Source of the DNA: Verrucomicrobiota bacterium
GTDB lineage: Bacteria; Verrucomicrobiota; Kiritimatiellia; JAAZAB01
Length of the DNA: 57,479 nucleotides
NCBI GenBank assembly: GCA_043814705.1
Contig: JBDRJR010000038.1
Span: 1 to 57,479 of the forward strand
Reading direction: 5' to 3'
Part shown: one piece after another, positions 33,253-36,626 of the stretch
Numbering within the stretch: position 1 is the stretch's first letter
Layout: the number at the start of each line of letters is the position of its first letter
Notes under the pieces: generated by a model
Databases searched by the model: none
What the model was told of the DNA's origin: nothing
Seen by the model: the letters and a program-made list of their open reading frames with translations, nothing else
Program-made: the position numbers and the translations under genes

Positions 33253-34419
33253 TCAGGCAAGAAATCGATGGTCCATCGCCGGACTTAACGGCACGGCGCC
33301 CTGGGCGGTGATCTCGTAGCCGGTCTCAATGCGCACACCGTTAAATTCCGGGTGACCGAAAAAGCTGACATCCACGCAGACGGTCATACCCGGTGTGAGT
33401 ACATCGTCGCTGTTGGGGCCAAAAAACGGCGATTCGGCTTCGTGCAATCCGATCGTATGCACAAACGGACACACGAGGTATTTCGAGAAACCGTGCTTGT
33501 CAAAATAGGCGCGCGCCGGGGCGTCAATTTCCCGGCCTTTGCGGCCGACGACTAATTGTTCCTTGGTCAGACGGAATGCCTCTTTCAAATGCCGCAGGCA
33601 CTCTTGCTGGCGCTGGGTATAACTGCCCGAGACCGGCAGGACATCGCCCACGACACCGGCATAGCCCTGCACCTTGGGCGCAAGGCCGATCATCACCAGT
33701 TCGCCCGCCGCCAGGGGCTTGGAACTCGCCGTGGGTACCACGGCATTGGAGCGCAGGCCGCTACCGACAATGGCGCTGAAACCAAAACCGGTTGCCCCGC
33801 GGCTACGCGCGGCAAACTCGCCCGCCGCGGCCACCGCGATCTCACTGACACCGGGTTTCACCGCCGCCTTCATGGCTGAATAGGCGTGATCTGCCAGGGC
33901 GAATGCGGCACGGATTTGCGCGCGCTCCCATTCGGATTTTATATAACGCAGACGGACGAAGGCGTCGGTGATATCCACCAGTTCGCACTCGCGCATGCCT
34001 TCCACGATCTGGCGATAGCAGTCTGCCGGCATCCGGCCCCCGCCTACCAGGCCGATGCGCTTGACGGACTTCAAGGTGCGGTTCAGTTCCGCAAACAGCT
34101 TGGGAAAATCAATGATCACGGCATTGGGATATTCCTCATTGGGCACCATGAACACGGGGAAATTGCGCGTTTCCTTGATGGCGCTGTCCAGCTTGGCGAA
34201 GGGCTCGCTTTCCGGGCCGCCCAGGATCATGGGGGCGCCTTCGCGCGGCACCAGCACTGCCCCGCTCTCAAACTGAGGGCACCAGCCGGTCAGGTACCAG
34301 CCGTTGCCGATGTTAAACTCGTCGTAATAAACCAGCGCAATATCAAGCTTCCGGTCCTGCAACAATTTTCGAACTTGTTCCATCCGTGAGTCCCGTTCCT
34401 GATCGGTGAGATAGGCCAT
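33253..34419 (-). CDS. M24 (Xaa-Pro peptidase/creatinase) fold protein
   Basis: Creatinase_N-like domain, IKSEWE, HTIGLHE, GVRIE; RBS AAGGA. Confidence 0.85.
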   Translation of the reverse strand: MAYLTDQERDSRMEQVRKLLQDRKLDIALVYYDEFNIGNGWYLTGWCPQFESGAVLVPREGAPMILGGPESEPFAKLDSAIKETRNFPVFMVPNEEYPNAVIIDFPKLFAELNRTLKSVKRIGLVGGGRMPADCYRQIVEGMRECELVDITDAFVRLRYIKSEWERAQIRAAFALADHAYSAMKAAVKPGVSEIAVAAAGEFAARSRGATGFGFSAIVGSGLRSNAVVPTASSKPLAAGELVMIGLAPKVQGYAGVVGDVLPVSGSYTQRQQECLRHLKEAFRLTKEQLVVGRKGREIDAPARAYFDKHGFSKYLVCPFVHTIGLHEAESPFFGPNSDDVLTPGMTVCVDVSFFGHPEFNGVRIETGYEITAQGAVPLSPAMDHRFLA

Positions 34420-34522
34420 GGTGCTTTCCTTGTTTATGATTGTTGATTGCTGATTTCTGATGGCAGGCCACACACTTTACGCCGGACAACGGAAAACAGA
34501 GACTAAAATGAGAGGTCAGATT

Positions 34523-34568
34523 AAAAAAAACGAGAGGCCATGCAGTCGTAGCATGGCCTCTCGTTTTT
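34523..34568 (-). terminator. Intrinsic terminator, probably bidirectional
   Basis: 13 bp stem CGAGAGGCCATGC/GCATGGCCTCTCG with T8 on the minus strand and T5 on the plus strand. Confidence 0.85.
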
Positions 34569-34586
34569 CGACATGCACCATGCGGG

Positions 34587-34676
34587 TTATTTTTTGCTTT
34601 TTTTAGTTTTCTTGGTCTTTTTTGCTTTCCTGACCGGTTTGCATCCACATGGTTTACATCCACATGATTTACACAT
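34587..34676 (-). CDS. 29-aa Cys-rich, Lys-rich small protein MCKSCGCKPCGCKPVRKAKKTKKTKKSKK (absent from the ORF track)
   Basis: Translated by hand; AGGAGG 8 nt upstream; has its own promoter and terminator. Confidence 0.8.
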   Translation of the reverse strand: MCKSCGCKPCGCKPVRKAKKTKKTKKSKK

Positions 34677-34722
34677 AATGTTCGCCTCCTTCCACGGTGA
34701 AAAAACTACGGAATTGTTAATA

Positions 34723-34751
34723 ATGATAGAGCATTTGTCCGGTCGTGTCAA
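34723..34751 (-). promoter_or_regulatory. Near-consensus sigma70 promoter of the small gene
   Basis: Minus strand: TTGACA (34751-34746), 17 bp spacer, TATCAT (34728-34723). Confidence 0.8.
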
Positions 34752-34857: not shown

Positions 34858-35259
34858 ATGCCGAAGGAAGCCCTAAACGAATTGGCCGCCGTGCTGGCCG
34901 ATACGAATGATAGCGCCGCTATGCAGGACTTGCTCGAGGCCCTGCTCACACCCCGGGAGCGGGCGCGGCTGGCCCTGCGTTGGCACCTGGTTTGCCTGCT
35001 GACTTCCGGCATGCATCAGCGCGCGATTGCCCGGCAACTGGGCATCAGCCTTTGCAATATCACGCGCGGCTCCCGCGAACTGAAGCGGCGATCAGTGTTT
35101 CGACAGAAGGTCGGTCAATTTGTTAATGATCAATTAAAATTCAAGCCGGGTGTAAACCCGCCTGCAATCTCGCCGCGGTGGATAGCACTGCCTGCCCGCA
35201 ATGCTACGCATAGCGTTGCAGGCGGACGGGCAGGCCCTCGGAAAGGAAAAAAAACATGA
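34858..35259 (+). CDS. trpR: Trp repressor family (TrpR/YerC) regulator
   Basis: LLTPRE..L..RW, QRAIARQLGISLCNITRGSRELK; coupled to trpB2; C-terminal tail is repeat-derived. Confidence 0.85.
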   Translation: MPKEALNELAAVLADTNDSAAMQDLLEALLTPRERARLALRWHLVCLLTSGMHQRAIARQLGISLCNITRGSRELKRRSVFRQKVGQFVNDQLKFKPGVNPPAISPRWIALPARNATHSVAGGRAGPRKGKKT

Positions 35260-36626
35260 GCCGCGAATTCAAGGTGTTGTTGAACGATGACGAGATCCCG
35301 CGCCAGTGGTATAACATTCAGGCGGATTTGCCGCACCCTCTGCCGCCGCCGGTGGATACGGAAGGCAAACCGATTGGGCCCGAGGCGCTGGCGCCGGTGT
35401 TTCCCATGAACCTGATCGAGCAGGAAGTCAGCACCCAGCGCTGGATTGATATTCCCGAGGCCATTCTCGAAAAACTGCTCCTGTATCGGCCGAGTCCGCT
35501 TTGCCGCGCCTATGCTTTTGAAAAGGCGTTAAAGACATCGGCGAAAATTTATTATAAGAATGAAGGAGTTTCACCCGGGGGCAGTCACAAAACAAATACG
35601 GCCATTGCCCAGGCTTATTACAATAAAAAGTTCGGCATTAAGCGCCTGACCACCGAAACCGGCGCCGGTCAGTGGGGCAGCGCCCTGGCGATGGCGTGCA
35701 AACTGTTCGAGCTGGTCTGCAAGGTTTACATGGTCCGCATCAGTTTTGAACAGAAACCGTTCCGGAAAATGATGATGAACACCTGGGGCGCGGAATGTGT
35801 CGCGAGCCCCAGTAACCAGACCAAAGCCGGCCGCGCGATCCTGGCCCAGACACCCGATACGCCCGGCAGTCTGGCCATGGCCATCAGCGAGGCGATTGAG
35901 GATGCCGTCACCTCAAAGGACACCCGCTATTCATTGGGCAGTGTGCTCAACCACGTGCTTTTGCACCAAACCATTATCGGGCTGGAGGCGCAGAAACAGT
36001 TTGAGAAAATCGGGGTCTATCCGGATGTCGTCATCGGCTGTGTCGGCGGCGGCTCGAATTTTGCCGGCATCAGTTTTCCATATGTCTGTGACAAGATTCA
36101 TGGCAAAAACGTGCGCGTGATTGCCGTGGAGCCGGCGGCCTGTCCGACGCTCACCCGCGGTCCATTTGTCTACGACTCCGGTGACGTGGCCATGATGACG
36201 CCCCTCCTGCCGATGTATAGTCTGGGCCACGGATTTGTGCCCAAGCCGATTCATGCCGGCGGATTACGTTACCACGGCATGGCGCCGCTGGTGAGCCATG
36301 TCATGCGTGAGAAGTTGATAGAAGCTTTAGCCATTAACCAGCTGGAATGTTATCGCGCGGCGTTGCTTTGGGCGCATACGGAAGGATTTATACCTGCGCC
36401 GGAAACGTCGCATGCCATCGCCGCCGCCGCACGGGAAGCCGTCCGCGCCAGCGAGGAAGGCAAGCAAACAATAATCCTGCTAAACTGGTCCGGCCATGGG
36501 CTTATGGACCTGACCGGGTATGAAAATTATCTCAGCGGCAAGATGGTGGATGCCACCTTGTCGGAAGGCGACTTGAACAAATCGCTCCAGTCGCTGGCAG
36601 GCCTGCCCCCGGCGCCGAAACTGTGA
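35256..36626 (+). CDS. trpB: TrpB2-type tryptophan synthase beta chain
   Basis: IPRQWYNI, GSHKTN, ETGAGQWG, LGSVLNHV, GGGSN, HAGGLRYHG, SGHG. Confidence 0.95.
   Translation: MSREFKVLLNDDEIPRQWYNIQADLPHPLPPPVDTEGKPIGPEALAPVFPMNLIEQEVSTQRWIDIPEAILEKLLLYRPSPLCRAYAFEKALKTSAKIYYKNEGVSPGGSHKTNTAIAQAYYNKKFGIKRLTTETGAGQWGSALAMACKLFELVCKVYMVRISFEQKPFRKMMMNTWGAECVASPSNQTKAGRAILAQTPDTPGSLAMAISEAIEDAVTSKDTRYSLGSVLNHVLLHQTIIGLEAQKQFEKIGVYPDVVIGCVGGGSNFAGISFPYVCDKIHGKNVRVIAVEPAACPTLTRGPFVYDSGDVAMMTPLLPMYSLGHGFVPKPIHAGGLRYHGMAPLVSHVMREKLIEALAINQLECYRAALLWAHTEGFIPAPETSHAIAAAAREAVRASEEGKQTIILLNWSGHGLMDLTGYENYLSGKMVDATLSEGDLNKSLQSLAGLPPAPKL

Follow-up and report, generated by a model that had tools for sequence, protein, structure and literature searches.

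A conserved microprotein gene with a HypB-type MCxxCGC head and a lysine-rich tail, and its possible link to nickel handling

The window analysed here, a 57,479-nucleotide stretch from a Verrucomicrobiota bacterium of the Kiritimatiellia (contig JBDRJR010000038.1), contains on its minus strand a monocistronic unit at positions 34523..34751. The unit consists of a promoter, an AGGAGG Shine-Dalgarno (SD) sequence, a 29-codon ORF and a strong terminator (Table 1). A prior sequence-only reading of this DNA had proposed these elements, and each of them was found on the minus strand at the positions given in the table. That reading had further described the ORF as masked by overlapping frames. Indeed, three such frames were identified: a TTG-extended frame of 54 aa, a minus-strand frame of 106 aa and a plus-strand frame of 228 aa.

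Table 1. Features of the microprotein unit and of its neighbouring genes.
Feature	Coordinates	Strand	Basis or remark
-35 hexamer TTGACA	34746..34751	-	Direct read; 11/12 promoter match jointly with -10
-10 hexamer TATCAT	34723..34728	-	17-nt spacer from -35
Shine-Dalgarno sequence AGGAGG	34685..34690	-	8 nt upstream of ATG
Microprotein CDS, 29 aa, stop included	34587..34676	-	ORF reading, orthologues, pN/pS
Codons 1-7, M-C-K-S-C-G-C, HypB-type CxxCGC motif at the extreme N-terminus	34656..34676	-	Alignment, NCBIfam resemblance
Two tandem 15-nt units, codons 5-9 and 10-14, CGCKP twice	34635..34664	-	Direct read
Lys-rich tail VRKAKKTKKTKKSKK	34590..34634	-	Translation; composition conserved
Stop codon TAA of the microprotein ORF	34587..34589	-	Direct read
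Intrinsic terminator: 19-bp hairpin (13-bp G+C core), 7-nt loop, U8	34523..34569	-	Folding, covariation
M24 peptidase gene with creatinase/prolidase N-domain, downstream neighbour	33253..34422	-	Pfam PF00557 and PF01321
Trp-repressor-like gene, divergent neighbour	34858..35259	+	Pfam PF01371, E = 7.7e-16
TrpB-like PLP enzyme gene, next after the Trp-repressor-like gene	35256-36626	+	Pfam PF00291

A scan of 1.1 kb returned three promoter-like sites, as compared with 0.7 expected from shuffled sequences. The only one that scored above 9/12 was the TTGACA-17-TATCAT site of the micro-ORF. No operator-like palindrome was seen by eye in the promoters of 11 orthologous loci. The core stem of the terminator comprises 13 bp, in which 34563-34551 pairs with 34543-34531; A/U pairs extend the stem to 19 bp, and the U8 tract occupies 34530-34523. 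The hairpin has a predicted folding energy of -33.4 kcal/mol (z = -9.0 relative to shuffles). It is rich in G+C, is followed by a U-tract and is structurally conserved, as is characteristic of rho-independent terminators, and it was not listed by a simple terminator scan. An Rfam search of the unit returned nothing near the gathering score. Based on its promoter and SD signals, the micro-ORF is probably strongly expressed, and the high expression suggested in the earlier reading is plausible on the same grounds. In metatranscriptome X1, contigs were identical to the M24 peptidase gene (33332-33563, 33731-33964 and 34178-34527) and to the trpB-like gene. None covered 34587-34751, a result that is uninformative because contigs of a low-depth organism cannot show an RNA of ~190 nt.

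The product of the micro-ORF, MCKSCGCKPCGCKPVRKAKKTKKTKKSKK, contains 29 aa and no His. Thirteen of its residues are basic (12 Lys and one Arg), one more than had been counted earlier. The peptide is expected to be disordered in the absence of metal. The CKxCGCKxCGC repeat that had been remarked upon is present in the window's copy, where it corresponds to a tandem 15-nt duplication in the assembled sequence (34664-34650 and 34649-34635, 13 of 15 bases identical). The duplication adds Cys10 and Cys12 and was seen in this genome only. Ten other orthologues lack it and contain a single C-x-x-C-G-C with three Cys; the repeat is thus a peculiarity of one genome and not the design of the family. 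A fourth Cys occurs at position 10 in several relatives.

Among the neighbouring genes, the side carrying the Trp-repressor-like and TrpB-like genes is syntenic in most members of the genus. On the other side, the terminator separates the micro-ORF unit from the M24 peptidase gene. The identity of the downstream gene varies among orthologous loci: it encodes the M24 peptidase in the window, and a LacI-type regulator or a convergently oriented DJ-1/PfpI protein elsewhere.

The conservation of the unit was evaluated in related genomes. A six-frame search of 41 genomes, combined with inspection of the loci, identified the unit in 11 genomes, and pattern searches identified it in four more. Of the 25 genomes of the window's family that were searched, 15 have an orthologue, of 22-30 aa; five of the ten genomes scored as lacking one were tested with the protein query of the six-frame search alone. 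Within the genus, nine of ten genomes carry an orthologue, and the assembly of the remaining member is 83% complete. The usual product contains 22-28 aa and begins M-C-K/R-S/T-C-G-C, followed by two or three variable residues and then a lysine-rich tail. The sequence-only reading had made its proposal depend on the ORF being conserved in relatives, which it is.

Selection acts on the frame of the micro-ORF only. Using eight 24-codon orthologues, pN/pS was 0.25 in this frame as compared with 1.76 and 0.83 in the other two, and the codons for Cys2, Cys5 and Gly6 showed synonymous changes only. In an alignment of lysine-tailed micro-ORFs, M1, C2, C5, G6 and C7 were invariant in 42 of 42 sequences. 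The tail is under compositional constraint: its composition is conserved and K11 and K12 are nearly invariant, its length and residue order being variable. The flanking signals are likewise retained. A -35 element reading TTGAC or TTGAT occupies the same place in 9 of 11 orthologous loci (L008 and L011 are without it), and the -10 element reads TATCAT, TATACT, TATGCT or CATAAT. The SD sequence is AGGAGG or GGAGG in ten of the 11 loci and GGGGG in L011. Eight orthologues of differing sequence retain the terminator hairpin, with compensatory changes at 9 of 21 pairs. Conservation in relatives places the arrangement far beyond chance. The micro-ORF is a real, conserved gene, and the earlier description of a genuine, self-contained microprotein gene with a Cys head and a polycationic tail is borne out by the unit's conservation in relatives. 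A spurious ORF was considered and rejected, given the orthologues in 15 of 25 family genomes and the pN/pS of 0.25.

The microprotein of the window starts with MCKSCGC, placing CxxCGC at residues 2-7, immediately after the initiator Met, as in the N-terminal extension of HypB. By sequence, the head matches exactly the motif that forms the high-affinity Ni(II) site in HypB, M-C-x-x-C-G-C. This assignment is more specific than the metallothionein-like head proposed previously: the Cys head with a metal-site motif stands, and the motif is of the HypB type, with no match to the metallothionein families in Pfam or NCBIfam. According to one report, CxxCGC in the Escherichia coli HypB forms a picomolar, square-planar Ni(II) site from the N-terminal amine, Cys2, Cys5 and Cys7, and a short peptide maquette of the motif binds Ni and Zn (PMC12284835). 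A second report distinguishes three groups of GTPase-type HypB by their N-terminus, which is short and metal-free in the first, carries CxxCGC in the second, and carries CxxCGC together with a His-rich stretch in the third (PMC13202556). In the micro-ORFs, the motif is fixed directly after Met1, which argues for a site using the N-terminal amine.

Library searches yielded a single similarity for the head, to NCBIfam HypB_prefix_1 (NF053667) and HypB_prefix_2 (NF053668), with all scores below the cut-offs. The window's copy scored 8.5 bits against HypB_prefix_1 (E = 5.3), short of the curated cut-off of 30 bits. The best HypB_prefix score among ten proteins scanned, two of which were lysine-tailed relatives, was 20.8 bits, and the E values of relatives went down to 7.7e-4. 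No Pfam family matched the peptide at E values up to 10. The G3E P-loop GTPase domain with the CH-x30-34-C metal site (HypB, TIGR00073) is absent from the 29-aa product. A 42-member profile searched against 1.84 billion proteins produced no match at E <= 0.001; a low-complexity profile of 26 positions cannot reach significance in such a search, and peptides shorter than 30 aa are rarely called.

Similar micro-ORFs occur well beyond the window's family. When one genome per species was scanned with an exact pattern that required two Lys at positions 11-12, at least 120 loci were returned, as compared with ~17 expected by chance (an arithmetic estimate). Most scan loci, on translation, proved to be 12-40-aa ORFs with an SD sequence, an MCxxCGC head and a lysine tail. 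Among the loci listed, the carriers include Planctomycetota (Sedimentisphaerales, Phycisphaerae and Pirellulales), Kiritimatiellia, Thermoplasmata (13-aa forms), DPANN archaea, Dehalococcoidia, Omnitrophota and others. In viral contigs, the pattern scan yielded 62 loci, mostly MCATCGC forms of 43-64 aa. The window's peptide belongs to the resulting class of micro-ORFs of up to 60 aa that start M-C-x-x-C-G-C, have a Lys-rich remainder and carry their own ribosome-binding site. Most of the loci stand alone, with no nickel gene beside them. Clustering of the 400-bp flanks of ~113 loci revealed no recurrent neighbour for the lysine-tailed bacterial forms. The same clustering revealed lineage synteny for the Thermoplasmata forms, in which the ORF lies downstream of an H+-pyrophosphatase-like gene. 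In one genome (G024), a second lysine-rich ORF of 38 aa, free of Cys, is located 21 nt downstream of the micro-ORF.

Several loci connect the micro-ORF to nickel insertion. In five species-level loci of the Goldbacteria type, labelled Goldbacteria/Goldiibacteriota except for one Methylomirabilis and one unclassified, the micro-ORF lies upstream of hypA (product MHEVSIAEEI...), its end being 2-28 nt away. A short-form hypB follows hypA in L220 and L221, the two loci that reach that far. The HypA sequences of the five loci are similar, so the loci may represent one lineage and the operon link a single evolutionary event.

The co-occurrence of the micro-ORF and HypB was examined across genomes. 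In the window's family, HypB was found in 13 of 15 carriers and in 5 of 10 non-carriers. Among other bacterial carriers tested, 13 of 14 had HypB, as did all three verified carriers in the Planctomycetota; the whole Planctomycetota sample had it in 33 of 121 genomes, and the background in the whole sample of the window's phylum was 107 of 401. The HypB of the window's family starts M(P/T)KLNIKIYRNLMGAND and is without CxxCGC in 18 of 18 genomes, and the HypBs of carriers outside the family are all of the short type (13/13). In the non-family sample of the phylum, an in-frame MCxxCGC was present 69-228 nt before the G-domain match in at least 73 of 99 HypB-bearing genomes, and some HypBs of the phylum begin MCKDCGC. 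No micro-ORF was seen in 390 non-family genomes of the phylum, where, of the nine matches to the lysine pattern, eight were N-termini of HypB and the ninth was a frame of 331 aa. Outside the family, the free MCxxCGC matches listed came to 76, which is about chance level (0.2 per genome, an arithmetic estimate); none of six that were translated was a micro-ORF of the lysine-tailed kind. The genome of the window itself contains two [NiFe]-hydrogenase large-subunit genes and genes for a HycI-type protease, hypA and hypD, which indicates that the organism uses nickel.

Other observations fit the link to nickel less well. No hypB was found in the window's assembly, which is 80% complete. In congeners, the gene order is an MFS-like gene, hypA, hypB and a gene for a 176-aa secreted protein. 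In the window's assembly, the syntenic slot of hypB is empty: the gene that comes after hypA (C113:1836-2195) is unrelated, and the one for the 176-aa protein is located mid-contig on C85. Five family genomes have a short HypB and no micro-ORF that was found; as the assembly of one of them (G014) is 100% complete, the peptide cannot be obligatory. Another genome, the carrier G006, encodes, besides its short HypB, a weaker HypB paralogue beginning MCEKCGC. In the Planctomycetota, 30 of 33 HypBs are of the short type and three of 33 have CxxCGC; a short HypB is thus the expected state there, and the complementarity of micro-ORF and fused motif carries weight only in the window's phylum. Moreover, the genomes are relatives, so the counts are not independent and the pattern in the phylum is essentially that of one clade.

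Look-alike micro-ORFs also occur in genomes without a GTPase-type HypB: two Thermoplasmata, four DPANN archaea and one Dehalococcoidia. The DPANN counts, together with the one clear archaeal hydrogenase match, rest on genomes G426 and G429, which are flagged as unpublished. PF00374, the [NiFe] large subunit, matched in three of five such genomes tested, the two Thermoplasmata matches being to the N-terminus only, and gave no match in the other two. A [NiFe] large subunit is missing from at least two of the five tested genomes. Copies in phages cannot be of use to a hydrogenase inside the virion. The motif has five fixed residues and binds Zn(II) in vitro as well, and it could have arisen more than once.

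The reading that we favour, tentatively and at a little under even chances, is that the microprotein is a free-standing, nickel-holding peptide that serves HypA and the short HypB in hydrogenase assembly. Met aminopeptidase removes Met1 when it precedes Cys. As residue 2 of the microprotein is Cys, Met1 would be expected to be removed, which would free the N-terminal amine. Judging from the identity of the motif, this amine and the thiolates of Cys2, Cys5 and Cys7 could form a high-affinity, square-planar Ni(II) site of the HypB type. The peptide would then store Ni(II) or pass it on during [NiFe]-hydrogenase maturation, alongside HypA and the short-form HypB, and would supply in trans a module that in most relatives is part of HypB itself. 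The lysine tail may contribute solubility and electrostatic docking on an acidic partner or a polyanion. We infer, and only infer, that the microprotein binds metal, which metal that is, its partner and the role of its tail. The step from binding a metal to serving a hydrogenase leans on the operon of one lineage and on co-occurrence. We are more doubtful about a broader proposal, that of a split metallochaperone: a separate peptide of ~24 residues would load Ni(II) for HypA and the short HypB, or buffer it, and archaea and phages would have adopted the same lysine-tailed metal cap for other functions tied to polyanions.

A different function accommodates the copies in phages and archaea better: the peptide would be a metal-capped polycation that chiefly binds a polyanion (DNA, rRNA or other RNA, or polyphosphate). 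The histone H1-like, nucleic-acid-binding role that the sequence-only reading had proposed for the tail would belong here and is a live alternative. In this case, Zn(II) or Ni(II) in the three-Cys head would fold, dimerise or cross-link the peptide, which would have no role in hydrogenase assembly. About 13 of the 22 residues after the head are basic and their composition is conserved, and head and lysine tail recur together at the 62 viral loci, mostly as the 43-64-aa MCATCGC forms, and as look-alikes in small DPANN genomes and in Thermoplasmata without a GTPase-type HypB. Consistent with this function are also the Cys-free, lysine-rich ORF of 38 aa that lies 21 nt downstream in G024 and the stand-alone position of most loci, with no adjoining nickel gene. 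We nevertheless regard polyanion binding as the main job as rather doubtful, since it leaves four observations unexplained: the presence of an exact HypB-type N-terminal site instead of an ordinary CxxC...CxxC knuckle, the hypA-hypB operon position in five loci, the co-occurrence with HypB (13 of 14 bacteria versus a background of ~27%), and the missing fused motif in the HypB of carriers.

With three Cys per peptide, the capacity of the microprotein would be very low for a metallothionein. This argues against a general thiolate buffer or detoxifier, metallothionein- or Hpn-like, that takes up any excess soft metal (Zn, Cu(I), Cd, Ni or Co) and serves no single pathway. Such a buffer appears unlikely on further grounds: the peptide matches no metallothionein in Pfam or NCBIfam, no metal-resistance or transport genes are adjacent to the micro-ORF, and the strict position of the motif after Met1 points to an N-terminal-amine site. 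It would be consistent with the Cys-rich head, including the two Cys added here by duplication and the fourth Cys at position 10 in several relatives, and with a strong promoter and SD sequence, as for an abundant buffer. The binding of Zn as well as Ni by the HypB motif in vitro, described in PMC12284835, fits it too. A cis-regulatory role for the unit, either as a leader peptide acting as a Cys/Lys-codon attenuator or as a small RNA, with a functionless peptide, was rejected as very improbable. The minimum-free-energy fold does pair the region of the Cys codons with a segment just past the stop codon, GCAUGG/CCAUGC words recur in the terminator so that an alternative pairing can be drawn, and the terminator separates the ORF from the gene that follows it on that strand. 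However, the downstream gene is not constant (M24 peptidase, LacI-type regulator or convergent DJ-1/PfpI), it is the amino acids that are conserved, with the codons of the invariant residues changing synonymously, the putative antiterminator, drawn by eye, has only 6-7 bp against a terminator of -33.4 kcal/mol, and no Rfam family matches. Finally, the peptide is small, Cys-rich and cationic, as would suit the precursor of a ribosomally made, post-translationally modified peptide (RiPP) or a cationic antimicrobial peptide. No signal or leader precedes the Cys block, as the motif starts at residue 2, and no radical-SAM, cyclodehydratase, lanthionine-synthetase or exporter genes occur within 1.5 kb in 11 orthologous loci (~3 kb each), where the neighbours vary. 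The modified-peptide precursor that had been suggested earlier thus found no support, and we consider this last origin least probable of all.

If the nickel reading is correct, systems with a 'short' HypB would be read differently, in that many organisms with a 'metal-free N-terminus' would keep the site on an unannotated gene. The microprotein would also represent a minimal natural Ni(II)-binding peptide, testable using a synthetic copy, and would offer a first way into the function of a large, unannotated family of microproteins that extends to archaea and phages. Should the link to nickel fail, the family is still a conserved and widespread class of metal-capped polycations.

The microprotein can be compared with several known systems. 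Bacterial metallothioneins such as SmtA and BmtA are small, Cys-rich metal binders that hold a zinc cluster with ~9 Cys. In contrast, the norm in the micro-ORF family is three Cys, with no zinc-cluster fold, a motif fixed at the N-terminus and no family match. Hpn and the Hpn-like protein of Helicobacter pylori are small and abundant proteins that, with no enzymatic activity of their own, hold nickel and support nickel enzymes; Hpn contains ~60 aa and is His-rich, whereas the window's peptide has no His and a putative site of three Cys and an amine. The lysine-rich MCxxCGC micro-ORFs of other bacteria, archaea and phages have in common with it the head, the type of tail, the small size and an SD sequence of their own. 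The phage forms, at 43-64 aa, are longer than the 29 aa of the window's peptide, and the genomic links to HypA and HypB are those of the window's lineage. A further group of 35-40-aa peptides with ten Cys (MCQSCGCSPCKKCG..GVCSGC..ECTCK), for which no library family matched, has the MCxxCGC start, a fourth Cys at position 10 (CGCSPC, CGCKPC) and often a Lys-rich end, but differs from the lysine-tailed forms in being longer and in having a fully Cys-patterned body.

Nickel delivery to [NiFe]-hydrogenase has been described through HypA, HypB and SlyD. The likeness to the N-terminal extension of HypB lies in the identical M-C-x-x-C-G-C at the start of the chain, in five loci that encode the micro-ORF with hypA-hypB, and in the occurrence of the micro-ORF where the HypB of the genome is without the motif. 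Unlike HypB, the window's peptide lacks a G3E GTPase domain, a His-rich stretch and a SlyD-binding segment, and has a lysine tail instead. In the window's family, moreover, the micro-ORF is located apart from the hyp genes and has its own promoter and terminator. At less than 30 aa, a free-standing CxxCGC peptide escapes gene callers. No description of one was found in the full-text literature, a search whose coverage excludes most subscription journals, and where the accessible passages name both CxxCGC and HypB, the context is HypB. Thus, the motif and its chemistry are known; new, as far as we found, are the free-standing, lysine-tailed microprotein and its link to the short-form HypB.

In the window's own genome, an assembly 80% complete, the hypB gene is missing from its syntenic slot, which lies outside the window on two other contigs, between hypA and the gene for a 176-aa secreted protein. 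hypA and hypB are adjacent in at least four congeners (G004, G006, G007 and G008), and the secreted-protein gene adjoins hypB in six. Either hypB has been lost or has moved elsewhere, or the genome was mis-joined during assembly.

A duplicated hypB start was found in another genome, G034. There, a toxin-antitoxin-like pair is flanked by intact hypB and a 36-aa remnant sharing the first residues of HypB (MCETCGCGG..). This arrangement is a duplication of the hypB 5' end around an insertion, and represents one possible route to a free-standing MCxxCGC head.

Near the micro-ORF, the Trp-repressor-like gene lies directly 5' of the TrpB-like PLP enzyme gene with a 4-nt overlap, and the order of this pair, divergent from the micro-ORF, is kept in most members of the genus. 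A palindromic REP-like element is placed after the conserved part of the Trp-repressor-like gene and before the trpB-like start. Its exact core occurs in at least nine copies in the window's genome and, in metagenome runs, the element had very high depth and many differing flanks. In G024, a genome carrying the micro-ORF, a second lysine-rich ORF starts 21 nt past the micro-ORF, with its own SD and without a Cys head.

Coordinates of the features and loci
Feature	Location	Remarks
Trp-repressor-like and TrpB-like PLP enzyme genes	window 34858-36626	opposite direction to micro-ORF
REP-like palindrome CCTGCCCGCAATGCTACGCATAGCGTTGCAGGCGG	window 35191-35225	
Slot without hypB	C113:1836-2195; C85:35658-36188	own genome
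TA-like pair between hypB-start remnant and whole hypB	L332 = G034:C28:32200-33300	
38-aa lysine-rich ORF MAKARKKATPKKK...	L178, from oriented position 1612	G024
Ten-Cys family	L067, L069, L076, L081, L090, L093, L095, L096, L099, L110, L120, L122, L127, L128, L133, L134	plus others
MCxxCGC head + NifU/Nfu domain	L072:401-670; L092	90 aa; Sedimentisphaerales MAGs
MCxxCGC head + His/Thr-rich stretch	L085:284-436; L153	stand-alone, 51 aa; Dehalococcoidales

A second family of micro-ORFs, each 35-40 aa long, contains ten Cys in the pattern MCQSCGCSPCKKCG..GVCSGC..ECTCK. Its hosts are Planctomycetota, Deltaproteobacteria-labelled MAGs, Omnitrophota, Nitrospirota and Actinomycetota, and its members had no match in Pfam or NCBIfam. 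Among Thermoplasmata, 13-aa ORFs (MCDTCGCK.KKKP) were observed close downstream of an H+-pyrophosphatase-like gene (L209, L212, L213 and nine more loci); one genome has two such ORFs and a 66-aa MCQNCGC protein.

The MCxxCGC head also occurs on other bodies. Of these, the Dehalococcoidales peptide looks like the N-terminal extension of HypB with the GTPase part missing.
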